A stretch of 64,000 bases of DNA from Chloroflexota bacterium (GTDB lineage Bacteria > Chloroflexota > Limnocylindria > Limnocylindrales > CSP1-4), in assembly GCA_044506615.1 (NCBI GenBank), contig JBIQKJ010000005.1, forward strand, positions 67,344 to 131,343. The letters are read 5' to 3'. Below are positions 24,963 to 47,946 of the stretch, one piece after another. Each line of letters opens with the position of its first letter. Positions within the stretch are counted from its first letter, which is position 1. The translations under genes and the position numbers were made by a program. The notes below the pieces were generated by a model, which was not told where the DNA came from, made no database searches, and worked only from the letters and a program-made list of their open reading frames with translations.

Positions 24963-25775
24963 ATGACGACCACCCCTGACGCCCGTCCCGACGCGTCCGC
25001 GACGACCGCCGGCGCGGGCGCCGGGACGTGGGTCGTGCTGCCGACCTACAACGAGGCCGAGAACCTCCGCCCGATCTCGGAGGCGATCCTCGCGCAGCTG
25101 CCGGGCGCGACGCTCCTCGTCGTCGACGACAACTCGCCCGACGGCACCGGCACGATCGCCGACGGCCTGGGTGCCGCCGACCCGCGCATCCGGGTCAGGC
25201 ACCGGGCACAGAAGCAGGGCCTCGGCCGGGCGTATCTCGACGGCTTCGAGACCGCGCTCGACGCGGGCGCATCGGTCGTCGTCCAGATGGACGCCGACTT
25301 CAGCCACGACCCGGCCGTGCTGCCGGCGCTCATCGGGCCGGTCGAACGCGACGAGTGCGACATCGTCATCGGCTCGCGCTACGTCACGGGCGGCGGCGTC
25401 GTCGACTGGTCGATCTTCCGCCAGGCGATCTCGCGCGGCGGCAGCCTGTTCGCGAGGACCGTGCTCCGGCTCGCGCCGCACGACCTGACCGGCGGCTTCA
25501 AGGCGTGGCGCGCGAGCACGCTCCGGGACGTGCCGTTCGACGGCGTGCACGCGGGCGGCTACGTCTTCCAGATCGAGATGACCTACCGCGCAAGCCGCGC
25601 CGGCGCACGCGTCCGCGAGATCCCGATCGTCTTCCACGATCGGCGCGTCGGGCAGAGCAAGATGTCGCGGCGGATCGTCGCCGAGGCGCTGGTCGTCGTT
25701 GTCCAGCTCTGGCTCGAGGAGCAGCGGGCGCGGTTCCGCCGCGGTCCGCGCACCGGGGACGCCGGTCGCGGGTGA
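24963..25775 (+). CDS. GT2 family polyprenol/dolichol-phosphate mannose synthase-like glycosyltransferase
   Basis: VVLPTYNEAENL..., DDNSPDGT, QMDADFSHDP motifs. Confidence 0.8.
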   Translation: MTTTPDARPDASATTAGAGAGTWVVLPTYNEAENLRPISEAILAQLPGATLLVVDDNSPDGTGTIADGLGAADPRIRVRHRAQKQGLGRAYLDGFETALDAGASVVVQMDADFSHDPAVLPALIGPVERDECDIVIGSRYVTGGGVVDWSIFRQAISRGGSLFARTVLRLAPHDLTGGFKAWRASTLRDVPFDGVHAGGYVFQIEMTYRASRAGARVREIPIVFHDRRVGQSKMSRRIVAEALVVVVQLWLEEQRARFRRGPRTGDAGRG

Positions 25776-27100: not shown

Positions 27101-28297
27101 TCAGCCGCCCGGCGACGCGGTGGGTGCAGGCGAGGCGTCGGGCTCGGGGTCGGTGCCCGGGTCCCAGCCGATGGCCGTCCCGGTCGGCACCACCTGGACG
27201 AACGTCTGGCCCGCGGTCAGCGTGATCGGGTTGCCGTCGTTGTCGAAGAAGCGCGTCGGCCGGTTGAGGCCCTCCTTCTCCCACGTGCCGCGGATGCGGC
27301 GGCCGTTGGTGAAGATCCAGGCCTTGCCGTTCCCGACGTAGTCCGCCTCGAGCCGGTGCTTCGGCGAGCCGTCGTTGAGCGGCCCGAACCGCATGAACAC
27401 CACGACGACGTTCTTCGGAGCGACCCGTTCCCTGGTTCCGGCATCGACCTGCTTGCCCTCGACGCTGACCGACCGACGCCAGGTGTTCGATGCGCGGTGG
27501 TACTGGTACGAGACCCGGTTGTACGGATACCGGACGACGATCGAGCCGCCGCTCGGGCGTTCCGCCTCCGGCGCGTCGGGTGCGAACCGCCAGGCCGACC
27601 TGTAGTCGCCATCCTCCGCGCCCAGCCGATTCCCGAGCCGGCGCAGCTCCCGCCCACTGGTGTAGACGTTGTGCGGCGGGGCGCGGAACGTCACCCGGTG
27701 GAAGAAGCGGCCCTCCCAGCGGAAGACCTCGGCGTTGAATACGGACTTGCCGTTGCCGCGCCGGGCCAGAATCTCCTTCGCCTGCGGCGAGCCCCCCGCG
27801 TGTGCGTAGACGGCCTTCCACTCGGCGGCCCACGCGATGTAGTAGAGCCGGGCGCTGCGGACGGGACCGATCTGCTCGGGCAGCGTGTCCTGGAAGATCG
27901 CCATGTAGCGCGGGATGCCGCCCTCCGCCGGCGCGTGCCACACGACGCTCGCTTCGCTCAGCCCCGACTGCGGCCGTGCCGGGCTGAGGTCGTCGATCAT
28001 CACGGCGATCGGGTGACGGCGGGCCACAGCGGGTGACACGGGCAGCCCGGTCAGGGGAGCGGCGACGGTCGTCGGGGTCGGCGTGGGCGAGGGGGTCGGC
28101 GTCGGGGAGGGTGTCGGCGTTGCCGACGGCGTGGGGGATGGCAGCGAGACGATCGGCGTCGGGGTGGGCGTGGGCGATGCGACGGCCACCGGGGACTGGC
28201 TCGCGCCCGGGCCGGGTGAGCTTGCGGCGATGACGCCGATGACGACGCCGATGGCGACGGCCGCGACGACCGCGGCGAGGACAACGGGCCGCTTCAT
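27101..28297 (-). CDS. DUF3048-like secreted/anchored protein with signal anchor and Pro/Thr/Ser-rich linker
   Basis: MKRPVVLAAVVAAVAIGVVIGVIA then (PTPSPT)n linker then conserved domain; start chosen at the Met preceding the TM segment. Confidence 0.6.
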   Translation of the reverse strand: MKRPVVLAAVVAAVAIGVVIGVIAASSPGPGASQSPVAVASPTPTPTPIVSLPSPTPSATPTPSPTPTPSPTPTPTTVAAPLTGLPVSPAVARRHPIAVMIDDLSPARPQSGLSEASVVWHAPAEGGIPRYMAIFQDTLPEQIGPVRSARLYYIAWAAEWKAVYAHAGGSPQAKEILARRGNGKSVFNAEVFRWEGRFFHRVTFRAPPHNVYTSGRELRRLGNRLGAEDGDYRSAWRFAPDAPEAERPSGGSIVVRYPYNRVSYQYHRASNTWRRSVSVEGKQVDAGTRERVAPKNVVVVFMRFGPLNDGSPKHRLEADYVGNGKAWIFTNGRRIRGTWEKEGLNRPTRFFDNDGNPITLTAGQTFVQVVPTGTAIGWDPGTDPEPDASPAPTASPGG

Positions 28298-30528: not shown

Positions 30529-31341
30529 CTAGATCCGCCCCGCGGCCAGGCGCGCGGCCTTCGCCGCCTTGGCCTCCTGCATGTGCTGCTGGTGCAGCTC
30601 CACGACCGCCTGCGGCGCGCCCTCCAGCACGACCTGCCCCCGCTCGACGAGGATCGCCCGGTTGCAGTACTCGGTCACCCAGCCCATGTCGTGCGTCACC
30701 AGCACGACCGCCTTGGCCTTGCGCACGAGCTCGATGACCCGTGCCTTCGACTTCGCCCGGAACGCGGCATCGCCAGTGGCGAGCACCTCGTCGAGGAGCA
30801 GGATGTCGGGGTCGACCGACGTCGCGATCGAGAAGCCGAGCCGCGCCCGCATGCCGGACGAGTACGTCTTGAGCGGCGCGTCGATGAACTCGCCGAGGTC
30901 GGCGAACTCGATGATCGACGGGAGAAGCTCGCGAGTCACCGCGTCGTCGAGACCGAGGAACGCCCCGCCGAGCAGGATGTTGTCCCGTCCCGAGAGCTCG
31001 CTGTCGAACCCGGCGCCGAGCGTCAGCAACCCAGACACGTGCCCGTGGACGTCGACGGTCCCTTCGGACGGCTTGAGGATTCCGGCGAGCACCTGGAGGA
31101 GCGTGCTCTTGCCCGCACCGTTCGGGCCGATGATCGCCAGCGACTCCCCGTGGGTCAGGTCGAACGAGACGTGGCGGAGCGCCCAGAACTGCTTGCCGCT
31201 CTGCCGGTTGATCAGGTTCGACAGCTGCTGCCGGATCGTCACCTTCCGGTTGAAGCGCAGGTTGTAGTAGACCCCGAGGTCCCGGACCTGGATCGCGTAC
31301 GGCGCGCCGGCACGCAGCCGGGGCGGAGCCTCGACGGTCAT
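30529..31341 (-). CDS. ABC transporter ATP-binding protein, polysaccharide/teichoic-acid export type (Wzt/TagH-like)
   Basis: Walker A GPNGAGKST, signature YSSGMRARL, Walker B ILLLDE. Confidence 0.85.
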   Translation of the reverse strand: MTVEAPPRLRAGAPYAIQVRDLGVYYNLRFNRKVTIRQQLSNLINRQSGKQFWALRHVSFDLTHGESLAIIGPNGAGKSTLLQVLAGILKPSEGTVDVHGHVSGLLTLGAGFDSELSGRDNILLGGAFLGLDDAVTRELLPSIIEFADLGEFIDAPLKTYSSGMRARLGFSIATSVDPDILLLDEVLATGDAAFRAKSKARVIELVRKAKAVVLVTHDMGWVTEYCNRAILVERGQVVLEGAPQAVVELHQQHMQEAKAAKAARLAAGRI

Positions 31342-32231
31342 CACAGCACCTTGGCGAAGGTCGGCTCGAGGCGCTTGAAGAGGATCGTCGCGAGAGCCAG
31401 GAACACGACGCTCACGACGAGGAGGATGGCGAGCCCGACCCAGTCGGGTCCGAGCCCTGCCCCCGGCGCGTCGGGCGCCCCGTAGATCACGGCGCGGTAC
31501 GAGCTGAACAGCACCGAGAACGGGTTGAGCTGGAAGATCGTGAGGATGATCGGGTGCTCCTTGACGAAGTCGACGTCCGACAGCCGGTCGAGCCCGTACA
31601 GCCCGGGGCTCAGGTACCACCACAGCCGCAGCAGGTGGCGCATGACGTTGCCGAGGTCGCGGAAGAACACGTTGGCCGCCGACACGAGGATCGCCATTGC
31701 CAGCGAGAACACGTACTGCACGACCGCGATCACCGGGATCAGCAGCACGAACGGGGTGATCCGGTCGCTGTAGAACAGGAGGAGCGCGCCGAGCGGGATG
31801 AGCCCGAAGGCGAAACCGACGATCCCCGCGGTCGCCGACGAGATCGGCAGCACGATCTTCGGGAACGCGATCTGGCGGATCAGCTGGCTCGAGCTCACCA
31901 CCGACGACGACGCGTCGTTGACCACGCTCGAGAACCACTTCCACGGCAGGATCGCGCAGAAGATGAACAGCGGGAAATCGGGGTAGAGACCGCGCGCCAG
32001 GATCGTGATGAACACGAAGTACACGGCCATCTGGAGGAGCGGGTCGAGCACCCACCAGAAGTTGCCGATGAGCGTGTCGGCGCCGCGCTTCTTCATGTCC
32101 GCGCGAACGAGGTACCCGACCAGCCGCTGCCGCGATCGGACCTCCCCGATCGCCTCGGTCAGCAAGGCAATCGGGCTTCTCGCACCGGCCGTGTTGCTGT
32201 AGGCAGCCGGCGCTTCGGTCGTGGCGGACAT
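31341..32231 (-). CDS. ABC-2 type transporter permease (Wzm/TagG-like)
   Basis: 6 TM helices; 1-nt overlap (ATGA) with downstream ATPase gene; start at internal Met 32231. Confidence 0.8.
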   Translation of the reverse strand: MSATTEAPAAYSNTAGARSPIALLTEAIGEVRSRQRLVGYLVRADMKKRGADTLIGNFWWVLDPLLQMAVYFVFITILARGLYPDFPLFIFCAILPWKWFSSVVNDASSSVVSSSQLIRQIAFPKIVLPISSATAGIVGFAFGLIPLGALLLFYSDRITPFVLLIPVIAVVQYVFSLAMAILVSAANVFFRDLGNVMRHLLRLWWYLSPGLYGLDRLSDVDFVKEHPIILTIFQLNPFSVLFSSYRAVIYGAPDAPGAGLGPDWVGLAILLVVSVVFLALATILFKRLEPTFAKVL

Positions 32232-32490
32232 CGGGCCGAAGGGTATCACCTGACGGGGCCCCGGCAGGCGCGGTCGACCCCGTCCAGGGGCCGCGCCGGC
32301 CCTTGTGGCGAGCCGACCCGAGGGCCTATAGTCGCGGCGGCGGCATCCGGCGCCCAAGCTCCGATCGGGTCCCTGCGCGATCCGCTCGAGGAGCCAAAGG
32401 GGATCGCTGTCCTCCGGATGACTGACGGTCGTGTGCCTGATGGTCGTCGCTTCGGTGCGCAGGGCTGACGCGGTGGCCGGAGGGACATCG

Positions 32491-33468
32491 ATGACCGAGC
32501 AGAAGCACCGCAAGGCGCTCATCCGCGCGCGGATGGCGCGGACCGGCGAGTCGTACACGGTCGCGCGCAGCCACATCGTCGCGCGCGAGATTCCGCCGAG
32601 CCTGACCCCCACGGCCGCCTTCCAGGCCCACGACCGTCACTGCATGACGGTCGTGTTCACGCCCGACGACCAGGAGCTGATCAGCGGCGGCTTCGGTGGC
32701 CAGGCACGGATCTGGACCCTCGACGGCCGGCCCGCCGGCGAGCTGGCCGGACACGAGCAATCGGTGAACGTCGTGCGCATCTCGGCGGACGGCGAGACCG
32801 CGATCACGGCGAGCTCCGACAAGACGGTGCGCGTGTGGGACCTCCCGACACGCAGCGAGCGCGGGATCCTCGGGCGGCACCGTCGCCAGATCCTCTCGCT
32901 CGACCTCGATGCGGCGCGCGGTCGGGCGTGGAGCGGCGGTCACGACGGCAGGCTCATCGCCTGGGACCTCGAGCGCGGGGACGCGATCGTCGAGCTGGAC
33001 CTCGGCACATCGGTGACCGCGCTCGCGGTCCGTGCCTCGGACGGCGCGGTCCTCGCCGGCACGGCTGGCGGGGGGATCGCGATCGTCGACCCGGACGGAG
33101 CGCTCCTGACCCGGCTCGGGGATCCGGCAGCCGTGATCGGCTCGGCGTCCTGGGCCGCCGACGGCTCGTTCCTGATCGCCTCGACCCGGGACGGCTCCAC
33201 GATCTGGGCCGCGGACGGCTGGGAAGCGGTCCGCACCCTCGTCGGCGGGTCGGGCAGCATGCTCCCGGTCGCGCTGAGCCCGGACGGGAGCCGCATCGCG
33301 CTCGGGTGGGACAACCACCTCGGCCTGTGGAGCGCCGACGAGTCGGCGCCTGCGGTGACCGTCGACGGTCTGCCGAAGGGCGTCTACGGCTTGTCGTTCT
33401 CGCACGACGGTCGGCATCTTGCGATGTCGGCCGCCGACGGGCGCGTGCGGCTCTGGTCGGTCACGTAG
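32491..33468 (+). CDS. WD40-repeat beta-propeller protein
   Basis: Repeated ...GH...V..V.FSPDG...SDKTVRVWD... blades; ATG 32491. Confidence 0.75.
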   Translation: MTEQKHRKALIRARMARTGESYTVARSHIVAREIPPSLTPTAAFQAHDRHCMTVVFTPDDQELISGGFGGQARIWTLDGRPAGELAGHEQSVNVVRISADGETAITASSDKTVRVWDLPTRSERGILGRHRRQILSLDLDAARGRAWSGGHDGRLIAWDLERGDAIVELDLGTSVTALAVRASDGAVLAGTAGGGIAIVDPDGALLTRLGDPAAVIGSASWAADGSFLIASTRDGSTIWAADGWEAVRTLVGGSGSMLPVALSPDGSRIALGWDNHLGLWSADESAPAVTVDGLPKGVYGLSFSHDGRHLAMSAADGRVRLWSVT

Positions 33469-33516
33469 CGGACGAATCCCGGTGACGCGGCCGGGGCCCC
33501 GCCGATCGGTGCGGAC

Positions 33517-34641
33517 TCAGGAGCCGAGGAACCGCTCCACGAAGCGGTCGCTCGCGCGCCCGTCCGCGTCGCCGAGGTGCCGGGCGATGAACGCGTCCCA
33601 CGCCGCGTCGTCGACGCGGGACGATCGGACCGCCTCGATCACCTCGTCGGTCGTCGTCGCGATCGCGCCGACGAGGTCGCGGCGCATGTCGAGGTACAGG
33701 CCGGGATCGGCCTCGTAGGCCGCGAGATCGGGCACGATCAGCACGATCGGCCGACGCAGCAGCGCGAACTCGAAGACCGAGGACGAGTAGTCGGTCAGCA
33801 GGACGTCGGTCGCCGTGAAGACCTCGTTGATCTCCAGCCGGGGATCGATGACCACGTCGAAGCCGGCGGTCCACGCCGGGTCCACCGCGAGGTTCGGGTG
33901 GGTCTTGACCGCGAGCACGTGATCCGCGGGCAGCGCGGCTCGGAGCCGCGCGGTGTCGATCGGTGGGCCGGGGTGCTTGCCGCGACCGCGGCCGCGGAAC
34001 GTCGGGGCGTAGAGGACGACCCGGCCCCCCGCGAGCGCCGGATAGCGCCGGAGGACGGCCGCCCGGGCCGCGTCCATCGACTCACGGTCGAAGAAGAAGT
34101 CGGTGCGGGCCGAGCCGAGCGGGAGCACCCGCTCGAAGGGCGTGCGGAACGCGCGCGCCCACGGCTCGCGCGACGCCTCCGACGTCGTGACGACGTAGTC
34201 GTAGCCGCGGTGGAGGAACGACCGCTCGGGCTCCTCGAGCGGCTGGCTGGTGTCGGCCCCGAAGCGCTTGAGCGCCCCGACCGCGTGCCACACCTGGACC
34301 ACGGTGGTCGACGGGCGACGGGACCCCACGTGGACGGGGAGGTACGCGTTGTCGATGACGACCAGCCGCGCGGTCTGGAGGTGGTACATGCCGCGGATCG
34401 TCCGGAGCAGGTAGCCGAGCTTGGCGCGGAGGCCGTAGCCGTACGGCTCGAGCAGCAGCACGTACCGCAGGTCCGGCCGCCGCCGACGCATCGCGGCGAA
34501 GATCCAGGCCAGGTTGCCCTCCAGGGCGGTGTGGCGGGGGCTGGCGAGCACGACGCGGTTGGGTCGGACCGGGAGCAGGCGGCACAGGGCGGCAACGATG
34601 CGCAGGAGGGCCTGCGCGAGGCGGAACTCGAGCCGGCTCAT
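33517..34641 (-). CDS. CDP-glycerol/CDP-ribitol:poly(alditol phosphate) phosphotransferase, TagF/TagB family
   Basis: VVLYAPTFRGRGRG and LAVKTHPN motifs of TagF family. Confidence 0.75.
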   Translation of the reverse strand: MSRLEFRLAQALLRIVAALCRLLPVRPNRVVLASPRHTALEGNLAWIFAAMRRRRPDLRYVLLLEPYGYGLRAKLGYLLRTIRGMYHLQTARLVVIDNAYLPVHVGSRRPSTTVVQVWHAVGALKRFGADTSQPLEEPERSFLHRGYDYVVTTSEASREPWARAFRTPFERVLPLGSARTDFFFDRESMDAARAAVLRRYPALAGGRVVLYAPTFRGRGRGKHPGPPIDTARLRAALPADHVLAVKTHPNLAVDPAWTAGFDVVIDPRLEINEVFTATDVLLTDYSSSVFEFALLRRPIVLIVPDLAAYEADPGLYLDMRRDLVGAIATTTDEVIEAVRSSRVDDAAWDAFIARHLGDADGRASDRFVERFLGS

Positions 34642-36161
34642 CCGGGGCGACGCTGACCCCCCGGCAGTGCCTCCGCGGCGACGGAACCCGGCACGCCCTC
34701 GCCGGCGGCGGCCTCGCCGCCGGGGACGTCGACCGGGCCGGTCCTCGTCGGATCTCCCGCCGGCGCCGCGGCGCCGTCGTGACGCTTGATGTCGACCACC
34801 TGGCCCGTCAGGTCGGAGCGGAGCAGCCGGAGGGTGGCGACGGCCACCTCGGCCGCGGTGAGCATCCCGACCGGGGATTCGTCGGGGAACGCGCGCCGGC
34901 GCATCGGCGTGTCGGTGCGCTCCGGGCTCACCGCGTTGACGCGGATGCGGTCGTCGGCCCACTCGTCCGCGAGCCCCTGGACGACGTTGACGACCGCGGC
35001 CTTGCTCGCGGAGTAGGCGACGTATTCCGGGCGTCCGCGGGTGAACGAGCTCGACGCGAAGAGCGTCAACGAGCCGGCCGCGTCCCGGAGATGCGGGTAG
35101 GCCGCGCGGGCGACGTTGAGCGACCCGGTCAGGTTGACGTCGATGATCTCGGCAAGCTCCTCGGGCTGCGTCTCGCTGACCCGGCCGATCCGCAGCAGCC
35201 CCGCGGTGCACACGACGTGGTCGAGCCCGCCGAGCGCCTCCGCGGCGGCGTCGACCCGAGCCTGTACCGCCGCGGCGTCCCGGATGTCGAGCCCGAGCGA
35301 CCGGCCCTCGACCGCGGTCCGCGCACCGAGCCGCCCGGCCTCATCGGCAATCGCCTTGCCGATGCCGTTCGTGCCGCCGATCACGAGGATCCGATCGCCC
35401 TCGAGCGTCTCCTCCGCCACCCCGGGCGCGGGCGGGGCGAGGATGCGCATCTGGAGCATGCGGTCGGCGAGCACGAGGTCGATGCGCGTCGTGATCTTCA
35501 GGTTGACCTCGTCGCCGGCCACGGCCAGGACCCGCGCCGACGGCACGTAGCGCAGGACGAGGCTGCAGTCGTCGGTCGCCTGGAGGTCGCCCGCGTCGGC
35601 GGCCCGCTCGTACGCCGCGCGGAGCACGCCCGCCAGGAAGACCTGCGGGGTCTGGCCCCGGCGGTAGCGCGCCCGGTCGGGGATCTCGACGACGTCGTCC
35701 CCCTCCACCACGACGAGCGTGTCGGCGCTCGGAATGACGGTGTCGGTCGCCTCCGCGACGCCGGTCGCGACGGGCTCGATCGAGCGGCGAACGACGTCGA
35801 CCGGGACCAGCGGGCGGACGGCGTCGTGGACGACGACGACGTCCGAGTCGGCCGCGCCCAGCGCCCGAAGCCCGGCGAGCGTGCTCTCGTTGCGTGTCGC
35901 CCCGCCCGGCACGACCGACACGGGCACGCCCCCGACCGCCTCACCGACGGCCGCCGTGGTCTGGGGCACCCAGTCCGGATGCGACACGATCACGATCCGG
36001 TCGACGCCCGCCTCCGCGACCGCCCGGACGCTCCGGACGAGGATCTCCTCGCCGGCCAGCCGGATGAACTGCTTGGGCTTCTCGGCCCCGAAGCGCGTGC
36101 CGCCGCCGCCGGCGAGCAGGATCGCGAGGATGCGCCGCTCGGGCGTCGGGCGCTCGGTCAC
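34638..36161 (-). CDS. Bifunctional IspD/TarI-type cytidylyltransferase + SDR reductase (Bcs1-like CDP-ribitol synthase)
   Basis: N-terminal ILLAGGGGTRFG...K cytidylyltransferase; C-terminal GGTNGIGKA...YSASKAA SDR; GTG start overlaps upstream stop. Confidence 0.75.
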   Translation of the reverse strand: MTERPTPERRILAILLAGGGGTRFGAEKPKQFIRLAGEEILVRSVRAVAEAGVDRIVIVSHPDWVPQTTAAVGEAVGGVPVSVVPGGATRNESTLAGLRALGAADSDVVVVHDAVRPLVPVDVVRRSIEPVATGVAEATDTVIPSADTLVVVEGDDVVEIPDRARYRRGQTPQVFLAGVLRAAYERAADAGDLQATDDCSLVLRYVPSARVLAVAGDEVNLKITTRIDLVLADRMLQMRILAPPAPGVAEETLEGDRILVIGGTNGIGKAIADEAGRLGARTAVEGRSLGLDIRDAAAVQARVDAAAEALGGLDHVVCTAGLLRIGRVSETQPEELAEIIDVNLTGSLNVARAAYPHLRDAAGSLTLFASSSFTRGRPEYVAYSASKAAVVNVVQGLADEWADDRIRVNAVSPERTDTPMRRRAFPDESPVGMLTAAEVAVATLRLLRSDLTGQVVDIKRHDGAAAPAGDPTRTGPVDVPGGEAAAGEGVPGSVAAEALPGGQRRPG

Positions 36162-37573
36162 GTGAGCCGCCGCGACGACATGCCACGGGACGCGATGCGG
36201 CGAACACGTCGGATGAAGGGGCGCCAGGGCCGTCCGGCACGCCGCCGCCGGTGCATCTCGTGGGTCATGGGGGGCCGGATCCGGGGACGGGGCTCGGTCG
36301 CGACTCGGATGAGCTCGTCGGCATGCGCCTGCGTCCTCGGGTCTGCCATGCGCGCGCGCATGTCCCAGGCGCGCATTCGCTGCTCCTCACGCTCGGACAT
36401 GCGGCCGAGCCGTGCGTCCAGCTCAGCCACGACCCACGCGCGATGGCCGTCGGCGACTCCGTCGGCCGATGGGGCGTACCAGCGCTTGAGCCACGACAGG
36501 TTGGACGAGTCGGCGCGGACTCTCTCCCGAAGCAGTCGCATCAGCCGGCTCGAGCCCGGGTAGCGGGCGAGCGTGAACGCGACCACGTCCTCGTGGGGGA
36601 TCGGGACCTGGCTCAGGCGTTTCACGGAGTCGCGCCCCCTGATCATGTGCTCGAGATCTGCGTCGCTTGGCCAGACCCCGGTCAGCGCGGCATCGAGGGT
36701 CGACTTTCGGAAGCACTTCCAGCACGACCGGCACGGTTCGCCGGGCTGGCCGCGAATGCAGGACTGGACCAGATCACTCCATGGAGAGCCGGTGCAGATG
36801 CGTGCCGTCCCGACCTCGCTCACGCCGGCGACCGGGCTACCGAACTGGAGTCCGACGGCGGCGAATGCCGTCGCCCACGGCACGCGTCGCCGACTCCAGT
36901 CGAGGAACACGGGATGGCCAATCCCGTAGGCGCTCTCGGCGATCACGCCCCAGCTGACCGAGTCGAAGCACCGCTTGTCGGCGAGCAGGACGGCAGCGGC
37001 CGCGTTCGCCCAGTCGGTCGGGAAGCCAACGGCGTTGCGGAGGTGCTCGAAGTCGGACTCGACGACCGACACGAAGCGCCCGTGCCGGGTTTGTAGCTGC
37101 TCGATCGCGTACATCGCGGCGTCGTCACGATAGATGGACCGAATCTCGCCAGCCGGGGGATCGATCCGGCGATGGAAGACAGCCTGGGTGTGGGTCGGCA
37201 TCACGGTCAGCGCGGCGAACGAGTCGGCGCCTCCGCTGAAGGCCAGCGCCGGGAGACCGTCCGCGGGTGTCGACCGTGGTTCGAGCGTGGTGTCGATCGG
37301 TGCCAGATCAACCTTCAGGTGCTCGTGCACGGCGCGCGCGAACGGCTCCGAGACCCCGCGATCGAACGCCAGCGCGTTCGCCCACGGTCGAAGCAGGAGC
37401 ACGACGGCGAGCGCCTCCAGATCTGGGTGAACGTCGTCGGCCACGAGGTCGGCGATCCGGAAACGTGCTTCGAAACGGACCATGTTCCCGCGGGTCCGCT
37501 CGATCGGTTCGCCGTTCTCGGCGACGAAGCGGAAGGTGGGTCCGTCAGCGCCCCAGTCCGTGTGCACCCTCAC
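36158..37573 (-). CDS. PP-loop superfamily ATPase (SGGADS motif) with C-terminal Cys cluster; candidate sugar amidotransferase/amidoligase
   Basis: LAFSGGADSFAAL PP-loop; CIRGQPGEPCRSCWKC; Arg-rich tail. Confidence 0.6.
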   Translation of the reverse strand: MRVHTDWGADGPTFRFVAENGEPIERTRGNMVRFEARFRIADLVADDVHPDLEALAVVLLLRPWANALAFDRGVSEPFARAVHEHLKVDLAPIDTTLEPRSTPADGLPALAFSGGADSFAALTVMPTHTQAVFHRRIDPPAGEIRSIYRDDAAMYAIEQLQTRHGRFVSVVESDFEHLRNAVGFPTDWANAAAAVLLADKRCFDSVSWGVIAESAYGIGHPVFLDWSRRRVPWATAFAAVGLQFGSPVAGVSEVGTARICTGSPWSDLVQSCIRGQPGEPCRSCWKCFRKSTLDAALTGVWPSDADLEHMIRGRDSVKRLSQVPIPHEDVVAFTLARYPGSSRLMRLLRERVRADSSNLSWLKRWYAPSADGVADGHRAWVVAELDARLGRMSEREEQRMRAWDMRARMADPRTQAHADELIRVATEPRPRIRPPMTHEMHRRRRAGRPWRPFIRRVRRIASRGMSSRRLT

Positions 37574-37686
37574 GGCCGGTACTCTACAGGCTCACCTGTG
37601 CGAGCGGCCGCAGCCCCCGCTGCCGTCGACCGGGGCCCACGGCCGTCGTCGAATGCCGACCGCCCGCTCGGCCTATCCTCTCCGGG

Positions 37687-38871
37687 ATGCGCCGTGTCCT
37701 CACCCTGCTTCGCCTCGCCTTGGTCCGGGCGGGCTTCGCCGCCGGTCGCCGGCTCCCGCTCAGGCGTCGGGTCGTGCTCGCAACCGCGCACGCCGAGCGC
37801 ATCTCGGGCAACCTCGAGTTCATCCGCCGCGAGCTCGCAGCCCGGTACCCCGGGCTGCCAGTGACGGTCTTCGCGTTCCGCCAGTCGACCTCGCGAGGTG
37901 GCCGGATCGGGGCGGCGATCAAGGCGCTGCGGTCCGGCTTCCTGCTCGCGACCTCGCGGGTCGTCGTGGTCGACGACTACTTCTTCCCGATCTACGCGGT
38001 CACGCCGCGACCGGGCACGGTGCGCGCGCAGGTGTGGCACGCGTGCGGGGCCTTCAAGAAGTTCGGCTACTCCGTCGTCGAGAAGGAGTTCGGGGCGGAC
38101 GAGGACCTCCTGAAGCACGTCCGCATTCACAGCAACTACGACATCGTCCTGGTCTCGTCCCGGTCGGTCGCCCCGCACTATGCCGAGGCGTTCGACCAGC
38201 CGCTCGAGCTGTTCCGGTCCGATCTGGGCATCCCGCGCACCGACGTCTTCTTCGGGGAGGAGCGGATCGCCGCCACGGCCGCGTCGGTTCGTGCCCGCTA
38301 TGCGATCCCCGCCGACCGGCGGGTCGTCCTGTACGCCCCGACGTTCCGTGGTGCGACGATCGGCCAGGCCGCGCATCCCGCACACCTCGACCTTCCCCGG
38401 ATGCACGAGGCGCTCGGTGACGACCACGTCGTGCTCGTGCGGCTGCACCCGTTCGTCCGTGCCGCCGCGCCGATCCCGCCTGAGCTCGCCGGGTTCGCGA
38501 TCGACGTCTCCGATCACCCCGAGTTCAACGAGCTCCTGCTCGTGACCGACGTGCTCGTGACCGACTACTCGAGCGCGATCTTCGAGTTCGCGTTGCTCGG
38601 CCGGCCGATGGCCTTCCTCGCTCCCGACCATGCCGCCTACGAACGCGAGCGGGGGTTCTACTTCGACTACGCGAGCGGAGTTCCGGGTCCGGTCTTCGAG
38701 ACGACCGACGCACTCGCCGGGTGGCTTCGCTCGGGCGTGGTGGACCTCGATCGAGTCGCGCGCTTCCGGCAGGCGTCGTTCGACGTCGCCGACGGCGGGG
38801 CGACGGCCCGCTTCGTCGACCGCGTCGTCGTGCCCGGACTCCGCGATGGGAGCATCGCGCGTCCCTCCTGA
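37687..38871 (+). CDS. Second TagF/TagB-family alditol-phosphate transferase
   Basis: VVLYAPTFRGATIG and LVRLHPFV motifs. Confidence 0.75.
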   Translation: MRRVLTLLRLALVRAGFAAGRRLPLRRRVVLATAHAERISGNLEFIRRELAARYPGLPVTVFAFRQSTSRGGRIGAAIKALRSGFLLATSRVVVVDDYFFPIYAVTPRPGTVRAQVWHACGAFKKFGYSVVEKEFGADEDLLKHVRIHSNYDIVLVSSRSVAPHYAEAFDQPLELFRSDLGIPRTDVFFGEERIAATAASVRARYAIPADRRVVLYAPTFRGATIGQAAHPAHLDLPRMHEALGDDHVVLVRLHPFVRAAAPIPPELAGFAIDVSDHPEFNELLLVTDVLVTDYSSAIFEFALLGRPMAFLAPDHAAYERERGFYFDYASGVPGPVFETTDALAGWLRSGVVDLDRVARFRQASFDVADGGATARFVDRVVVPGLRDGSIARPS

Positions 38872-38929
38872 CCACGCGCGGAGCCACCGCCGACGGCGTG
38901 CGCAGGGGTCGTGATGTACCCTTCCGCCG

Positions 38930-40741
38930 ATGCTCGCGACCCGCGACGAACCGACCGAGTCCGGCGGCGCCCCGGCGACACCGGAGACTCCGGCGGCACC
39001 CGATTCCCCTCGACCGCAAAAGCGCCGCCCGCGGATCGCGTACCTGTCCTACTCGACGGCCGAGTTCGATTCGCGCACCCAGCGCATGGCCCGCTCGGCA
39101 CTCGACGCGGGCTACGACGTCGTCGTCTACGCACGCTGGCAGCCCGGGGTGCCGCCGACCGAGGAGGCCGACGGGTACCGGATCATCCGCGTTCCGTTCG
39201 ACTGGCGGCTCGCGTTCCCGATCTGGCGACGACGGGCGATGCGCCGTCAGAAGCGCCGGATGGCGGATCCCGCGAACCACGTGCCGAAGCCCGCTCTCCC
39301 GCCGCTCGACGGCGGCACGGACGGAACCGAGCAGGCCGAGGCCGCAGAGGCGGCGGCTGCCGAGGCGGAGGGTGTCGACGAGGCGGAGGGTGTCGACGAG
39401 GCGTCGATGGACCAGGCGGCGGCCATCGGAGCGGGCACGGTTGCGCCCGAGACCGTCGCAGACCCCGCCCTCGGGGCCGCCGAGCACGCCGCTCCGTCCG
39501 ACGAGGACGCCGATCGCGAGTCAGCGGTCGCGGTGCGCCGCCGCAAGCGCGCAACGTTCCTGTGGCGCACCACGAGGCGCCTGCCCCGACCACTGCGTCG
39601 ACCCGCGCTGCGCACCCTCCGGCCGCTGCGCGCGGTGGTTCGCCCGATCTGGCGCGTCGTCCGGTCGCCGAATCGCTCGACCCGCCGCTACCGACCGTCA
39701 CGGCCCGTGAAGCGGACCTCGCCCGAGCTGACCCGAACGATGCGCGGCAAGATCGACCAGTTCCGCCGCCAGGCCATCCTCTTCCCGTTCCGCCCCATGG
39801 GCTGGGCATGGGCGCTCGAGGAGGTCGTCGAGCCGGCCGACGTCTGGCACGGCATGTGGGCGGGCTCGCTCCCGGCGCAGATGCGGCTGCGCAAGCGCTT
39901 CGGTGGCCGCACGATCTACGACAGCCGCGACGTCTACATGCACGCGCGCACCTTCGGCTCGATGGGGCCGACGATGCGCCGCGTGTTCGAGATCGTCGAG
40001 CGCCGCTGGGCCCAGGCCGCCGACACCGTGCTGACCGTCAACGAGGCGTACGCCTCGATCCTCGAGCGCAGCCTGCGCGTGCCGCGACCACCGATCGTGA
40101 TGAACTGCCCGGCACGCTGGACACCGCCCGAGCCGCGCCCGGACCTCCTGCGCGAGGCGATCGGGCTCGATGCGGCGACGCGCGTCGTGCTCTACCAGGG
40201 CAACCTGATGACCGAGCGCGGGATCGAGGAGTCGATGGACGCGATCCTCGACGTGCCGAACGCGGTGCTCGCGCTGCTCGGCTACGGTCCACAGCGGTCG
40301 AACTACGCGGAGCGTGCCGCCGCCCCGCCGTACGCCGGCAAGGTGTTCGTCCTGCCGGCCGTGCCGCCGTCGGAGCTCCTGACCTGGACCGCGAGCGCGG
40401 ACGTCCTCGTGATGGCGATCCAGCCGACGACGCTCAACCATCGATACACGACGCCGCAGAAGCTGTTCGAGGCATGCGCGGCGGGCGTGCCGGTCGTCGC
40501 CTCGGACCTGCCCGGCATGGCGGAGGTCGTCAATGCGACCGGGGCCGGCGTGTTGTGCGACCCGACGTCGCCGGCCGATGTCGCGGCGGCGCTCCGGCGC
40601 GTGCTCGATGCTCCCCCGGAGGAGCGAGCGCGCTGGTCGGGGGCGGCGCTCCAGGCGGCCCACACGACGTACAACTGGGAGACCCAGGTGGAGACGCTGC
40701 TCGACGTCTACCGCCGGCTCGTCGCCGCGGGTCGCGGCTGA
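38930..40741 (+). CDS. GT4-like glycosyltransferase with ~190-aa low-complexity (Ala/Glu/Arg-rich) insertion between the two Rossmann halves
   Basis: N-half RIAYLSYSTAEFDSR...; C-half ...VLYQGNLMTERGIEE...PQKLFEACAAGVPVVASD; insert contains a 2 x 21-bp tandem repeat (~39358-39400). Confidence 0.7.
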   Translation: MLATRDEPTESGGAPATPETPAAPDSPRPQKRRPRIAYLSYSTAEFDSRTQRMARSALDAGYDVVVYARWQPGVPPTEEADGYRIIRVPFDWRLAFPIWRRRAMRRQKRRMADPANHVPKPALPPLDGGTDGTEQAEAAEAAAAEAEGVDEAEGVDEASMDQAAAIGAGTVAPETVADPALGAAEHAAPSDEDADRESAVAVRRRKRATFLWRTTRRLPRPLRRPALRTLRPLRAVVRPIWRVVRSPNRSTRRYRPSRPVKRTSPELTRTMRGKIDQFRRQAILFPFRPMGWAWALEEVVEPADVWHGMWAGSLPAQMRLRKRFGGRTIYDSRDVYMHARTFGSMGPTMRRVFEIVERRWAQAADTVLTVNEAYASILERSLRVPRPPIVMNCPARWTPPEPRPDLLREAIGLDAATRVVLYQGNLMTERGIEESMDAILDVPNAVLALLGYGPQRSNYAERAAAPPYAGKVFVLPAVPPSELLTWTASADVLVMAIQPTTLNHRYTTPQKLFEACAAGVPVVASDLPGMAEVVNATGAGVLCDPTSPADVAAALRRVLDAPPEERARWSGAALQAAHTTYNWETQVETLLDVYRRLVAAGRG

Positions 40742-40852
40742 GCGGTCAGGGTGCCCCGGGAGCGTGATCGATCGGTGCCTGTATTCTCGGCCCATTCCGT
40801 CCGACGCTGATTCGCGCGGCGCGCACGGTGCGCCGCGCGCCTTGGAGGTTCC

Positions 40853-42157
40853 GTGACCCAGGATCGCCGCGTGGCCGTCATCGGCCTTGGCTATGTCGGC
40901 CTGCCGCTCGCCATCGCGTTCGTCGAGGCGGGACTCGACGTCGAGGGCATCGACGCGTCGCCGGCCCGCGTCGCCGAGCTGTGCTCCCGGCGCTCGCCGA
41001 TCGACGACGTCTCCGACGAGCGGCTGTCGGCCGCGTTGGACCGGGGGCTGACGGTGGTTCCCACGATCGACGCCCACCTCCGCGACGCCGACGCCGTGTT
41101 CGTGTGCGTCCCGACCCCGATCACGACGACCAAGGACCCGGACCTCGGACCGGTGCTGTCGGCCGGCGCGTTCATCCGCGAGCACGTCCGGGCGGGTCAG
41201 CTCATCGTCCTGCAGTCGACGACGTACCCCGGGACCACGACCGGGCCGTTCCGGGCCGAGATCGAGCGCAGCGGGCTGAAGGCCGGAACCGACTTCGATC
41301 TCGCGTTCGCCCCGGAGCGCGTCAACCCGGGCGACCCCGCCAGCGCCTCGAAGGGCGTCCCCCGGCTGGTCGGCGCGACGACGCGCGAGGGGACCGCCCG
41401 CGCGGCGGCGCTGCTGCGCAACGTCAACGACCAGGTGGTCGAGCTGTCCTCGCCGGACGCGGCCGAGCTCGCCAAGCTCCTCGAGAACGTCTTCCGCAAC
41501 ATCAACATCGCCTTCGTCAACCAGCTTGCGCTGCTGTGCGAGCGGATGGGCCTCGACGTCTGGGAGGTGATCGACGCCGCCGCGACGAAGCCGTTCGGGT
41601 TCATGCGGTTCACGCCGGGACCGGGCGTCGGTGGGCACTGCATCCCGGTGGACCCCTACTACCTCGCGTGGCGAGCCCGCGAGTTCGACTTCACCGATCG
41701 GTTCATTGAGGCGGCCGGCGACATCAACTTCGCGATGCCCCGGCACGTCGTCGACCTCACCGGTGAGGCGCTCAACGAGCGCGGTCGCGCGATCAAGGGC
41801 TCGAAGGTCGGCGTGCTCGGAGTCGCCTTCAAGCCGAACGTCCAGGACGCCCGCAACTCGCCGGCCGCCGACGTGCTCGCGGGCATCGCCGAGCGCGGCG
41901 CGGAGGTCCGCTTCCACGACCCGCACGTCCCGGAGTTCCGTGACGCGGCGGGTGCGGTTCGGACGAACACGGACCTCGACGAGCTTCTCGGCTGGGCCGA
42001 CGTCGTCGTGGTCGTCACTCCCCACCGGGCGATCGACTGGGACGTCGTCTACGACCGGGCCGATCTCGTCGTCGACACCGTCAACAGCTCGGCGGGACGG
42101 GCCGTTCGGCCGCGCCAGGTCCTGCGTCTCGGAGCCGGCTGGTCGAGCGAGGGCTGA
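40853..42157 (+). CDS. Nucleotide-sugar 6-dehydrogenase (UDP-N-acetyl-D-mannosamine/glucosamine dehydrogenase-like, WecC/WbpA family)
   Basis: VAVIGLGYVGLPLA Rossmann, GGHCIP catalytic Cys, C-terminal UDP-binding domain. Confidence 0.85.
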   Translation: MTQDRRVAVIGLGYVGLPLAIAFVEAGLDVEGIDASPARVAELCSRRSPIDDVSDERLSAALDRGLTVVPTIDAHLRDADAVFVCVPTPITTTKDPDLGPVLSAGAFIREHVRAGQLIVLQSTTYPGTTTGPFRAEIERSGLKAGTDFDLAFAPERVNPGDPASASKGVPRLVGATTREGTARAAALLRNVNDQVVELSSPDAAELAKLLENVFRNINIAFVNQLALLCERMGLDVWEVIDAAATKPFGFMRFTPGPGVGGHCIPVDPYYLAWRAREFDFTDRFIEAAGDINFAMPRHVVDLTGEALNERGRAIKGSKVGVLGVAFKPNVQDARNSPAADVLAGIAERGAEVRFHDPHVPEFRDAAGAVRTNTDLDELLGWADVVVVVTPHRAIDWDVVYDRADLVVDTVNSSAGRAVRPRQVLRLGAGWSSEG

Positions 42158-42201
42158 GGAGCCGTGGCGCGCCGCGATTCCGTTCTGGCTATGCTCGGCG
42201 G

Positions 42202-44424
42202 ATGGGCGGCGCCACGCCGGCGAGGGACCGGGCCACGGGTGCCGCCGAACGGGGAGCGTCCGTGACGACCGCGACCACCGCGACGCACGTCCTGCGGATC
42301 AGCCACGCTGCGCGGGCGCCTGGACCCGACGAGGTCGTGCTCGTCACCGACACGACCTGGACACCGCGTGCCGGAGAGGCGCAATCGGGCCGCGTCATCT
42401 CGTTGCGCGATGTCGCCGAGCGCGTGATGCGCGAGCGCGACGTGATCGCCGAGACGGCCGGCCTCCTCGACGACTGGGCCGAGTCGACCGGCATCGCCGA
42501 GCTCCTCGCGGTGGACGGGACCTCGTTCTGGTACGGGATGCGCCTCCGCCACTGGACGTGGCTGCTCGACCAGCTGCTGTGGATCACGATCCTCGACGAC
42601 GTGCTGGCGGGTGCGGGCCCGCGTGCGATCGCGATCGAGCACGGCGTCGACGAGGGCCTCGTCGAGGCGGGACGGCTGGTGGCGGCGCGGGACGGCCTGC
42701 GCTTCGAGCCGCCACCGCCGGTCGCGGTCGCGGCGAGCGCGCCGGCCGGCCCGCCGGCGGCGGATGCGGCCGCTGCGGACGATCTCGACGCCGATCCGCC
42801 GGACCACCAACCGGCCGATCCCCCGGCCGCCGCCAGGGTGTCCGCCCACGCCGACGCACCACGAGCCCCGGTTGCACGCGTGGGCGCGCCTCGTCGGAAG
42901 GGCCAGGGCAAGGGCAGGCGCAGGGGCGGTGCCAGGGGGATCGTGAGGCGGATCCGACGACGGATCAGCGGTGCACGCCAGGAGTCCCAGCGGCTGCCGC
43001 GCGCCCCGGAGCCGCCGCGCGAGCCGATCCTGCAGCGGCTGAACCAGTCCCTGCGCGACCGATTCTTCCCACCGGAGCCGGAGCGCCGCCGACGGCTCGC
43101 GCTCAAGCGCCTCGACAGGATCGCGAACAGCAGGGTCCGGCCGCTGCTCGTCGTCCAGGCGCACGTCCGGCAGCGTGTCGACACGCCCGCCGGCTCACGC
43201 CTCGTCAACACGTACCTCGGCCCGGTCCTGGACCGCCTCCGGGGTTCCGACCTCGATCCGGTCGAGCTCGACATCCGCGGCTTCCTGGAGGACGACGAGA
43301 CATGGGAGCGGCTCCGGGAGCAGGGCGGTGAGCGGATGCTGCCGGCCGACGTCCTCACGATCGCCCAGGAGGATCCGGTCGTCCCGGGGCTGAAGGAGCG
43401 CGCAGCCGCCCTCTCGAACCGCCTCGCGACGCTCGACGCCCCGCTCGTCGTGTCCGGCATCGACCTGGGACCCGCGCTGGCGCGCCGCGTCGCCCAGCGC
43501 TCGCGTGCCGCGCTCGTCCGGGCGATCGTCGATGTCGAGCGCATCAGGCGGCTGATCCGGCGCATCCGGCCGGCCGGGATCCTGCTGGCGGACGAGTACC
43601 ACCGCCAGGACTGGCTCGCGGCCGCCGCGCGGGAGCGGATCCCGACCGCAGCCATCCAGCACGGCGTCATCTACCGTTGGCACACCGGGTACATCCACCG
43701 GACGCGACCCGCCTCGTTGCGGCTGCCGAACCGCACCTACGTCTTCGGTGAGTGGGAGCGCGACCTGCTGGTCACGCACAGCGTGTACCGGCCCGACGAG
43801 GTCGTCGTCGGTGGCTCGCCACGGCTCGACCTCCACGATCCCGGGCCCGTCGACCGGGAGGCCGTCCGCGCGGAGATCGGCGTCGACCCTGAGGACCGGA
43901 TGGTCGTGCTCTCGGGCACCTGGGGGCCCATGTACCGCCGATTCCACTACCCGATCGCGCTCGCGCGCCTGTTCGACCGGAGCGTCGAACGCGTCCACCT
44001 GGTCGTCAAGCTCCATCCGTCCGAGCGGGACGAAGGACCGTACCGGGAGGCGATCGAGCGCCTGGCCGCCGCTCGCGGGTTCGCGCCGCCCCGGATCTCG
44101 GTGGTGCAGCGGGTGGATCTCTACCGGCTGCTCGCGGCGGCCGATGCCCACCTCGGGATCCACTCCACGGTCCTCACCGAGGCCGTCGTGACCGGCACGC
44201 GGAACCTCCTGGCGGACGTGCTCGCGGCGAGCGACCTGCTGGGCTACGTCGACGCGGGAGCCGCACACCCGGTCCGCTGCGCCGACGACCTCGAGGCCGC
44301 CCTCGCGCGCCCGCGCGAGGCGCTCACGTCGGGTTCGGCGCGTGAGGCGTTCCTGCGCGCGCACTTCGAGCCGGGGGAGGCCAGCCGCCGGATCGCGGAC
44401 GACCTCCTGGCATGGCTGCGCTGA
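42202..44424 (+). CDS. Large GT-B-like polymer-synthesis protein with TagF/KpsC-S-like C-terminal domain; candidate nonulosonate or alditol-phosphate transferase
   Basis: C-terminal VVLSGTWGPMYRRF...LVVKLHPSERDE echoes the YAPTxR / KxHP motifs of the two TagF homologues; translationally coupled to the downstream NeuA-NeuB fusion. Confidence 0.55.
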   Translation: MGGATPARDRATGAAERGASVTTATTATHVLRISHAARAPGPDEVVLVTDTTWTPRAGEAQSGRVISLRDVAERVMRERDVIAETAGLLDDWAESTGIAELLAVDGTSFWYGMRLRHWTWLLDQLLWITILDDVLAGAGPRAIAIEHGVDEGLVEAGRLVAARDGLRFEPPPPVAVAASAPAGPPAADAAAADDLDADPPDHQPADPPAAARVSAHADAPRAPVARVGAPRRKGQGKGRRRGGARGIVRRIRRRISGARQESQRLPRAPEPPREPILQRLNQSLRDRFFPPEPERRRRLALKRLDRIANSRVRPLLVVQAHVRQRVDTPAGSRLVNTYLGPVLDRLRGSDLDPVELDIRGFLEDDETWERLREQGGERMLPADVLTIAQEDPVVPGLKERAAALSNRLATLDAPLVVSGIDLGPALARRVAQRSRAALVRAIVDVERIRRLIRRIRPAGILLADEYHRQDWLAAAARERIPTAAIQHGVIYRWHTGYIHRTRPASLRLPNRTYVFGEWERDLLVTHSVYRPDEVVVGGSPRLDLHDPGPVDREAVRAEIGVDPEDRMVVLSGTWGPMYRRFHYPIALARLFDRSVERVHLVVKLHPSERDEGPYREAIERLAAARGFAPPRISVVQRVDLYRLLAAADAHLGIHSTVLTEAVVTGTRNLLADVLAASDLLGYVDAGAAHPVRCADDLEAALARPREALTSGSAREAFLRAHFEPGEASRRIADDLLAWLR

Positions 44425-47943: not shown

Positions 47944-47946
47944 CGG

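Follow-up and report, generated by a model that had tools for sequence, protein, structure and literature searches.

Textbooks treat teichoic acids as markers of Firmicutes and Actinobacteria. Here we analyse a module of genes for an alditol-phosphate polymer at positions 33517-38871 of a 64,000-nucleotide stretch of contig JBIQKJ010000005.1 (the whole stretch is referred to below as the window), built around a cytidylyltransferase fused to a short-chain dehydrogenase/reductase (SDR) and two TagF-family transferases, TagF1 and TagF2. The region probably encodes the central steps of a wall-teichoic-acid-like pathway in a bacterium of the Chloroflexota (Candidatus Limnocylindrales), a phylum whose teichoic-acid genes receive only annotation-level mentions in the literature that we searched (PMC8793728).

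Several described systems use comparable parts. Bcs1 (OOD27571.1) of Haemophilus influenzae type b (Hib) is a characterised bifunctional enzyme that reduces ribulose-5-phosphate with NADPH and then uses CTP to activate what it has formed (PMC10299916); it consists of an IspD/GlmU-like N-terminus followed by a FabG-like C-terminus (PMC4017328). In Streptomyces, a locus where a TagF gene adjoins a fused tarIJ gene yields chemically proven 1,5-poly(ribitol phosphate) wall teichoic acid with teichuronic oligomers, and teichuronic-acid genes are always linked to the fused tarIJ gene (bioRxiv 10.1101/2025.04.24.650519). Such polymers had originally been called uncommon outside Firmicutes, a view that the Streptomyces chemistry does not support. 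For the transferases, cryo-EM of the polymerase TarL places the catalytic H300 stacked on W299, together with a second histidine, H433 (PMC10901376). The donor polyol loop provides a code, by which ribitol-phosphate transferases are marked by GAF, glycerol-phosphate transferases by PL and the primases TarB and TagB by GAL or GSL, and family members that act as polymerases carry an additional N-terminal domain (PMC10901376).

Gene content of the module and comparison with described systems

Gene limits were set by plots of G+C content at third codon positions (GC3) in each frame, combined with inspection of start codons, because long spurious open reading frames are common in DNA that, like the window, has about 73 % G+C. 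The region 33517-38871 holds four real genes:

33517-34641, minus strand: TagF1, 374 aa, PF04464
34638-36161, minus strand: cytidylyltransferase+SDR fusion, 507 aa, IspD and adh_short domains
36158-37573, minus strand: DUF6395 protein, 471 aa, PF19932
37687-38871, plus strand: TagF2, 394 aa, PF04464

On the minus strand, the DUF6395 and fusion genes overlap in GTGA (36158-36161), and the fusion stop overlaps the TagF1 start in ATGA (34638-34641); DUF6395, the fusion and TagF1 therefore form, in that order, one translationally coupled operon with DUF6395 as its first gene. TagF2 diverges from this operon across a gap of 113 bp. The original prediction placed two TagF genes around the fusion. 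Both are present and both belong to PF04464, but TagF2 is not a direct neighbour, the 471-aa DUF6395 gene lying between; this gene and the ABC exporter at 30529-32165 had been missed. The reading frames first given for the two transferases (33517-35211 and 37267-38871) were overextended into overlapping frames.

With S. griseus and S. antibioticus (SGR_4956 TarIJ, SGR_4957 TagF), the locus shares a predicted fused reductase/CDP-ribitol pyrophosphorylase adjoining TagF, linked UDP-N-acetylhexosamine (UDP-HexNAc) dehydrogenase (uronic-acid) and glycosyltransferase genes, and a high-GC monoderm setting; the two were compared by gene layout. Unlike Streptomyces, the window belongs to the Chloroflexota and adds legionaminic-acid-like genes, DUF6395 and an ABC exporter about 1.4 kb from TagF1.

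The ribitol wall teichoic acid systems of S. aureus and B. subtilis W23 (TarIJ, TarB/F, TarK/L, TarGH, LCP) resemble the locus in their CDP-ribitol donor (predicted here), a two-histidine TagF enzyme with a GAF loop, a TarB-like paralogue with a GAL loop, an ABC-2 exporter and a LytR-CpsA-Psr (LCP) ligase. They differ in that their reductase is a separate medium-chain dehydrogenase/reductase (MDR), TarJ, whereas that of the window is an SDR fused to the cytidylyltransferase. The window's transferases also lack the Ig-like N-terminal domain and the long amphipathic helix of S. aureus TarL, its proteins score far under the Tar equivalog cut-offs, and no TarD, TarO or TarA gene lies nearby.

The Hib bcs1-bcs3 genes have in common with the locus the Bcs1 architecture, a presumed NADPH-then-CTP chemistry, a TagF-like ribitol-phosphate transferase and ABC export. 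Hib Bcs3, however, is a three-module polymerase with ribofuranosyltransferase and phosphatase modules, none of which occurs in the window, and Hib relies on diderm group-2 capsule export and lipid-anchor machinery with no LCP enzyme.

All parts of the locus come from known families, and in Streptomyces the same pairing of genes is already associated with ribitol wall teichoic acid of proven chemistry. What is new is the host lineage, with a Limnocylindrales-wide locus; a clean GAL/GAF split between paralogues in enzymes devoid of the N-terminal domain; and an acidic-sugar insertion with an uncharacterised PP-loop enzyme.

The fusion is a predicted Bcs1-type CDP-ribitol synthase

Pfam recognises IspD in residues 11-237 of the fusion (E 3.5e-43) and the SDR family adh_short in residues 290-428 (E 1.3e-33); the reductase part spans about 250-460, and a Gly/Ala/Pro-rich tail (about 462-507) is not conserved. 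Across 22 fusion orthologues, the cytidylyltransferase motif GxGxR...K, the SDR cofactor motif GGTNGIG, Asn343 and the SDR catalytic residues (Ser370-372, Tyr383 and Lys387) are invariant. An IspD-like N-terminus and a FabG-like SDR C-terminus with intact catalytic motifs in one polypeptide constitute the Bcs1-type architecture, as the original prediction had it for this 507-aa protein.

Among PDB sequences, the N-terminal domain is best matched by ribitol-5-phosphate cytidylyltransferases, headed by B. subtilis TarI (4jis, E 3.4e-31), the Listeria entry 3f1c and pneumococcal TarI (2vsh); mycobacterial IspD ranks after these structures (8.6e-26). No TarJ-type MDR reductase appeared among the fusion's PDB sequence matches. 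Automated KEGG and JGI names of homologues with 70-75 % identity are divided between a Bcs1-type name ('ribitol-5-phosphate 2-dehydrogenase / D-ribitol-5-phosphate cytidylyltransferase' in KEGG) and IspD, about half of the JGI-annotated homologues being called methylerythritol phosphate (MEP) cytidylyltransferase.

To compare loci, one genome per species was scanned with an alignment of the fusion, which gave 117 relatives; the related loci discussed throughout are the best 80 (64-72 % identity), and module counts refer to the 61 of them whose sequence extends 3 kb or more to either side of the fusion. A TagF1 orthologue lies directly downstream of the fusion on the same strand in 60 of these 61 loci. 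Were the N-terminus instead a housekeeping IspD of the MEP pathway, joined to an unrelated SDR, its adjacency to TagF would be coincidental, and this we regard as extremely improbable. The domain's top NCBIfam score is indeed to the ispD model (TIGR00453), and many JGI homologues carry automatic IspD names, but its 167.5 bits fall short of the 181.3 that the curated model requires for IspD, TarI enzymes lead the PDB matches, and the NCBI family name of the homologues is 'bifunctional cytidylyltransferase/SDR family oxidoreductase' rather than IspD. The near-universal same-strand linkage to TagF-family genes, translationally coupled in the window, is the strongest argument for a role in CDP-ribitol supply, and the protein is most likely a Bcs1-type CDP-ribitol synthase, as far as sequence and gene neighbourhood allow this to be predicted.

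Although the fused synthase had been described as rare, it is not: a word-indexed search gave 749 clusters at E<=1e-20 among scored candidates (the top 120 all with both domains), and 360 representatives of 50 %-identity clusters reached E<=1e-30 in an exhaustive search. Of the 150 best representatives, most are 440-490 aa long and align in a single stretch over query residues of about 10-460 with 31-50 % identity. Hundreds of diverse full-length relatives exist, and standard NCBI and KEGG/JGI names are in place for them. For ten distant representatives, a cluster look-up yielded no organism names, just metagenome proteins without a name or proteins automatically called 'IspD'.

Donor loops distinguish the two TagF-family transferases

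TagF1 and TagF2 are the sole TagF paralogues within the window, are 38 % identical to each other, and cover the Glyphos_transf profile PF04464 almost entirely (TagF1, E 4e-67, 227.3 bits; TagF2, E 1.3e-73, 248.5 bits; cut-off 22.1). The best PDB match of both is TarL 8va1, an H300N mutant (TagF2, E 1.3e-47 over TarL residues 212-558; TagF1, E 4.6e-35); the TagF structure 3l7i matches more weakly (2e-31 for TagF2, 1e-19 for TagF1). Among NCBIfam models, TarL outscores TarF and TarB for both proteins, although no score comes near its equivalog cut-off, the TarL equivalog NF041713 reaching 138 bits for TagF1 and 199 bits for TagF2 against a cut-off of 1000.

The motif YAPTFR occurs in both transferases, in accordance with the original prediction; the accompanying KxHP motif was predicted for both but reads KTHP in TagF1 and RLHP in TagF2. 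Both catalytic histidines are in place (QVWHAVGALK and VKTHPN in TagF1, QVWHACGAFK and VRLHPF in TagF2) and align to TarL H300, which follows Trp299, and H433. The donor loop of TagF2, WHACGAFK, has GAF, kept in 66 of 69 TagF2 orthologues. That of TagF1, WHAVGALK, has GAL, not GAF, and GAL is kept in about 68 of 72 TagF1 orthologues. A third TagF paralogue found in relatives has GAF in 38 of 47 cases, and GSF or GPF in several others. By this code, TagF1 is likely to be the priming or first transferase, and ribitol-phosphate extension would fall to TagF2 and, in relatives, to the third paralogue too, a division of labour that, like processivity, we infer from the loops. A GAL/GAF split in enzymes without the N-terminal domain offers simple recombinant targets for finding the determinants of priming versus polymerisation in the TagF family.

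The third paralogue lies between TagF2 and the fusion in about half of the related genomes (L005-L084; for example L007 at 8150-9300 and L017 at 8188), and is 35-43 % identical to TagF2.

The loops also bear on the identity of the alditol. The fusion might make another CDP-alditol, such as CDP-arabinitol, CDP-xylitol or CDP-erythritol, and the polymer might contain the corresponding alditol phosphate: the substrate specificity of an SDR is not readable from sequence, the N-terminal domain scores under the ribitol-5-phosphate cytidylyltransferase cut-off, and the automated names of the homologues disagree. TagF2 and its orthologues, however, carry GAF, the motif of all characterised ribitol-phosphate transferases; the best solved relatives of the cytidylyltransferase are TarI enzymes; and both the Bcs1 architecture and the Streptomyces tarIJ precedent yield ribitol. 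A different alditol is quite unlikely on this evidence, and we take ribitol as the predicted constituent in what follows.

The locus is syntenic across Candidatus Limnocylindrales

The best 80 of the 117 relatives are almost all Chloroflexota metagenome-assembled genomes (MAGs), labelled Candidatus Limnocylindrales/Limnocylindria or 'uncultured Chloroflexia'. Their loci have 66-73 % G+C, and Limnocylindria genomes have a mean of 68.9 % (PMC10608941). Housekeeping proteins of the window are close to those of the related loci (RNase PH up to 90 % identity, MreB 91 %, MazG/Ham1 80 %, ABC ATPase 82 %), and the named members of the 90 %-identity clusters of its MreB and RNase PH come mostly from Candidatus Limnocylindrales, Chloroflexota or Thermomicrobiales MAGs, one MreB member being labelled Verrucomicrobiae. 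The actinobacterial context assumed in the original prediction is thus replaced by a Chloroflexota one.

Gene order is shared as well. It runs from LCP through LOG, Ham1, RNase PH, MazG and a peptidyl-prolyl isomerase (PPIase) to TagF2 (minus strand) and, in some genomes, the third TagF (minus strand); then, from the divergent point, to the fusion and TagF1 (both plus strand), ABC permease, ABC ATPase, an optional acetyltransferase, DUF3048, GT4, GT2, MreC and MreB. A TagF2 orthologue lies upstream of the fusion and divergent from it in 53 of the 61 loci, and at least two TagF-family genes lie within 6 kb in 59, of which 30 have three or four. The window departs from this canonical layout by three insertions: DUF6395, a block extending from a GT4 gene to an aminotransferase gene, and a WD40 gene. 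Where relatives with a third TagF paralogue carry it, the window has DUF6395 instead.

A CDP-ribitol/TagF/ABC-exporter/LCP locus that is syntenic over at least 80 species-level Limnocylindrales genomes makes a testable envelope prediction for an abundant uncultured soil and freshwater lineage, and is relevant to dating the origin of alditol-phosphate wall polymers in the monoderm phyla.

Near-identical syntenic loci also occur, mostly on short contigs, in MAGs labelled as other groups (Binatia, Patescibacteria, Angelobacter, Thermoleophilaceae, Saccharimonadales, Dormibacterota and Steroidobacteraceae; loci L024, L033, L043, L058, L068, L072 and L078); errors of binning or labelling are a likelier cause of these labels than transfer.

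Export, attachment and the proposed pathway

Genes for an exporter, a ligase and further glycosyltransferases accompany the module, as follows:

24954-25775, plus strand: GT2 glycosyltransferase (Pfam)
25772-27091, plus strand: GT4 glycosyltransferase (Pfam)
27101-28297, minus strand: DUF3048 protein (Pfam)
30529-31344, minus strand: ABC exporter ATPase, Wzt/TarH/TagH-like; PF00005, no carbohydrate-binding domain
31341-32165, minus strand: ABC-2-type permease, Wzm/TarG-like; start uncertain, as the open reading frame could reach 32612 (GC3 frame plot)
57003-58475, minus strand: LCP glycopolymer-peptidoglycan ligase; PF03816, E 5e-34

The exporter (30529-32165) is separated from TagF1 by about 1.4 kb that hold the WD40 gene. 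Its ATPase matches Wzt 6amx (E 1.5e-56) and TarH 6jbh (E 8e-54) in the PDB, and its permease matches Wzm 6m96_B (E 1.7e-10) and TarG 6jbh_C (E 4e-9), with a weak NCBIfam match to Wzm/RfbD. The LCP protein, whose presence the original prediction had rightly noted, scores above the TIGR00350 cut-off and has TagU as its best equivalog match; it lies about 6-9 kb from the module in several related genomes, at the same relative position, and its link to the module is backed by this synteny. An ABC-2 exporter and an LCP ligase, the complement expected of a wall teichoic acid locus, are both associated with the module and both syntenic in relatives. GT2, GT4 and DUF3048 are syntenic neighbours of the exporter in 17-22 related loci and could possibly supply linkage-unit or decoration enzymes.

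In the pathway that we propose, the C-terminal SDR domain of the fusion would reduce ribulose-5-phosphate with NADPH, and the N-terminal IspD/TarI-type domain would convert ribitol-5-phosphate and CTP to CDP-ribitol, as in Haemophilus Bcs1. TagF1 and TagF2, as membrane-associated GT-B enzymes, would pass alditol-phosphate from the CDP donor to a lipid-linked acceptor, TagF1 (co-translated with the synthase) probably starting the chain and TagF2, whose GAF loop is like those of the TarL and TarK polymerases, probably extending it with ribitol-phosphate. The Wzm/Wzt-TarGH-type ABC transporter would then export the product, and the syntenic LCP enzyme would ligate it to peptidoglycan. An acidic, uronic- or legionaminic-like glycan might decorate or cap the chain, comparable to the Streptomyces hybrid of teichuronic and wall teichoic acid. 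Of the poly(ribitol-phosphate)-like polymer that had first been predicted, an alditol-phosphate module, most likely for ribitol-phosphate, is retained. The sequence and its comparison show the domains, catalytic residues, donor-loop motifs, operon overlaps, synteny and taxonomic placement, from which the substrate, the separate roles of TagF1 and TagF2, attachment to the wall and decoration are inferred.

Several observations weigh against this pathway. The fusion falls below the NCBIfam cut-off for ribitol-5-phosphate cytidylyltransferase (142 versus 166 bits) as well as that for ispD given above, and it was likened to Bcs1 and SGR_4956 through domain order and published description. TagF1 and TagF2 consist of the GT-B domain only, aligning to TarL at about 209-562 without the polymerase N-terminal domain, so that processive polymerisation is not assured. 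An ABC exporter lies within 10 kb in only 30 of the 58 loci with enough flank, and an LCP gene was found in only 13 of the 49 loci that extend 9 kb or more upstream. Homologues of TagO (PF00953), TagA (PF03808) and TagD were not found among the window's called genes; tblastn with a B. subtilis TagD query, a weak negative, gave no match in the window or in loci L001-L088. The TagO, TagA and TagD genes may lie elsewhere in the genome.

The absence of a nearby exporter from about half of the related loci suggests that there are two locus types per lineage. Some MAGs have two separate fusion-TagF modules on different contigs (L065 and L069; L051 and L062).

The domain content of the transferases also fits a pathway in which ribitol-phosphate enters a heteroglycan only singly or a few units long (serving as linker, cap or part of a glycosyl-ribitol-phosphate repeat) with no homopolymer, TagF1 and TagF2 acting as primases or oligomerases of the TarB/TarF type or as a TagF-like module of a capsule polymerase. 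With 374 and 394 aa, both have the size of TagB and TarF and lack the N-terminal domain described for polymerases (PMC10901376), conserved GT2 and GT4 genes adjoin the exporter, and many relatives have a third TagF paralogue. Against this, both enzymes are nearest in sequence to the GT-B domain of the TarL polymerase, TagF2 carries a polymerase-type GAF loop, and the N-terminal domains of polymerases are not fold-conserved (PMC10901376), so that they may be dispensable. Such sparing use of ribitol-phosphate is possible, if on the doubtful side, and we favour a ribitol-phosphate chain.

As to its destination, the polymer could be a released or lipid-anchored capsule or exopolysaccharide that leaves through the ABC transporter without ligation to peptidoglycan. 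The exporter is at least as similar to O-antigen Wzm/Wzt as to TarGH, housekeeping genes lie between LCP and the module, LCP is found in a minority of the loci with enough upstream sequence, and the envelope type of the Limnocylindria is unstudied. Yet the LCP gene keeps a constant relative position in many genomes, its best equivalog match is TagU, and Chloroflexota are described as monoderm (PMC8793728). We consider a polymer free of the wall unlikely, and attachment by the LCP enzyme remains the preferred reading.

An acidic-sugar block is inserted beside TagF2

Beyond TagF2 the window contains a further block of genes:

38930-51138, plus strand: accessory block, identified by Pfam and NCBIfam

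From the TagF2 side, its genes encode a GT4 protein (603 aa, 38930-40741), a UDP-HexNAc 6-dehydrogenase, a 740-aa putative transferase, a fusion of CMP-nonulosonic acid synthetase and NeuB, a NeuC/LegG-like epimerase, a nucleotidyltransferase (NTP-transferase) with CBS domains, a LegB-like dehydratase and a LegC-like aminotransferase. The LegB and LegC scores are slightly under the NCBIfam cut-offs. We take the NTP-transferase/CBS protein to be PtmE-like. A legionaminic-acid-like nonulosonic-acid cluster (42202-51138, plus strand) is thereby placed between TagF2 and the PPIase gene, and among the 80 related loci only L066 (2954-10000) has nonulosonic-acid genes in common with it. The locus may have been expanded by HexNAc-uronic acid and legionaminic-acid-like genes plus DUF6395, such that a ribitol-phosphate chain is decorated or capped by an acidic glycan.

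GC3 is 0.85 in DUF6395 and 0.95-0.96 in the fusion and TagF1 downstream of it. It is 0.91 in TagF2 and 0.90 in the GT4 gene at 38930-40741, where it is lowest at the 5' end, compared with 0.95-0.97 in core genes. The reduced values in DUF6395, TagF2 and the GT4 gene are consistent with later acquisition of the inserted block.

DUF6395 is a putative PP-loop enzyme of polysaccharide loci

The DUF6395 protein (PF19932, E 3e-52) is the least understood part of the locus, and we found no mention of its family in the literature. In the family alignment, the residues of a PP-loop SGGxDS motif (S113, G114, G115, D117 and S118) are invariant or nearly so, and four cysteines in the arrangement SC-x8-C-x2-C-x2-C (C272, C281, C284 and C287) are invariant. 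An AlphaFold (AF2) model with a predicted local distance difference test score of 91 has as its best Foldseek matches the PP-loop enzymes TilS, [4Fe-4S] LarE and MnmA, all of them weak (E >=5e-3, template-modelling score 0.2-0.36). Ten of 31 family members have a weak Pfam match to QueC, and weak ATP_bind_3 matches occur too; a search of PDB sequences with the family profile gave only marginal PP-loop matches, to argininosuccinate synthase (E 0.8-1.7). SGGxDS on a Rossmann-like alpha/beta core is the hallmark of PP-loop ATP pyrophosphatases, and DUF6395 is predicted to be a divergent QueC-like PP-loop ATPase, with fold matches that are weak. Like QueC (7-cyano-7-deazaguanine synthase), it has an SGGxDS PP-loop followed by a C-terminal four-cysteine metal site. 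It differs from QueC in carrying an additional beta domain at the N-terminus and a helical domain at the C-terminus and in its occurrence in polysaccharide rather than queuosine loci, and neither sequence nor fold comparison matches it to QueC significantly.

Its position at the head of the operon suggested a teichoic-acid enzyme, an idea that we rejected: DUF6395 is absent from all 80 related loci, and no TagF or fusion gene was detected beside it in any of 52 mostly marine metagenome loci (each of at least 8 kb) or in 6 of 7 other loci. In the seventh, from Demequina, a gene containing Glyphos_transf lies about 9 kb away. DUF6395 occurs in polysaccharide loci with a UDP-sugar dehydrogenase, a UDP-GlcNAc 2-epimerase or both in Demequina, Microbulbifer and Arthrobacter, and also in two of four metagenomic contexts. 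Its neighbours in the 52 metagenome loci include an NAD-dependent epimerase/dehydratase in 35, often directly upstream, a UDP-sugar dehydrogenase in 21 and a Wzt-type ATPase in 22. We conclude that DUF6395 appears to belong functionally with the inserted uronic-acid genes; more speculatively, it might catalyse an ATP-dependent modification of the uronate carboxyl, most simply amidation. As a widespread and unstudied PP-loop enzyme of polysaccharide loci it is of interest in its own right.

DUF6395 occurs in Actinobacteria, Gammaproteobacteria and marine metagenome contigs (L002-L004, L085-L167), often with two or three paralogues per locus.

We offer tentatively, and with more doubt than confidence, the wider proposal that the class Limnocylindria as a whole makes a ribitol-phosphate wall teichoic acid by means of a Bcs1-type synthase, a GAL primer and one or two GAF extenders, these transferases all free of the N-terminal domain, to which the organism of the window would add an acidic glycan; DUF6395 would modify the uronate carboxyl of this glycan, for example by amidation. 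If true, genuine teichoic acids would exist in a third monoderm phylum.

Flanking genes and minor observations

Between TagF1 and the ABC permease, and convergent with TagF1, lies a gene that has no homologue in the 80 syntenic loci:

32491-33468, plus strand: WD40 beta-propeller protein, 325-345 aa

A scan for promoters and terminators across 32000-39500 found nothing resembling a promoter; its single terminator-like site lies inside TagF2, and shuffled sequence yields at least as many. Beyond the inserted block follow genes for PPIase, MazG, RNase PH, Ham1, a LOG protein and LCP; farther out on the exporter side are DUF3048, GT4, GT2, rml genes, MreC and MreB. The DUF3048 gene is kept beside the exporter and glycosyltransferase block in about 22 related loci and is sometimes duplicated (L005 and L034); its product may be an extracytoplasmic component of the pathway. 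Lastly, a 733-aa protein encoded between the rml genes and GT2 (22721-24922, plus strand) combines FlgD-Ig with CHU_C, which resembles a type IX secretion sorting signal and makes an odd combination for a presumed monoderm.

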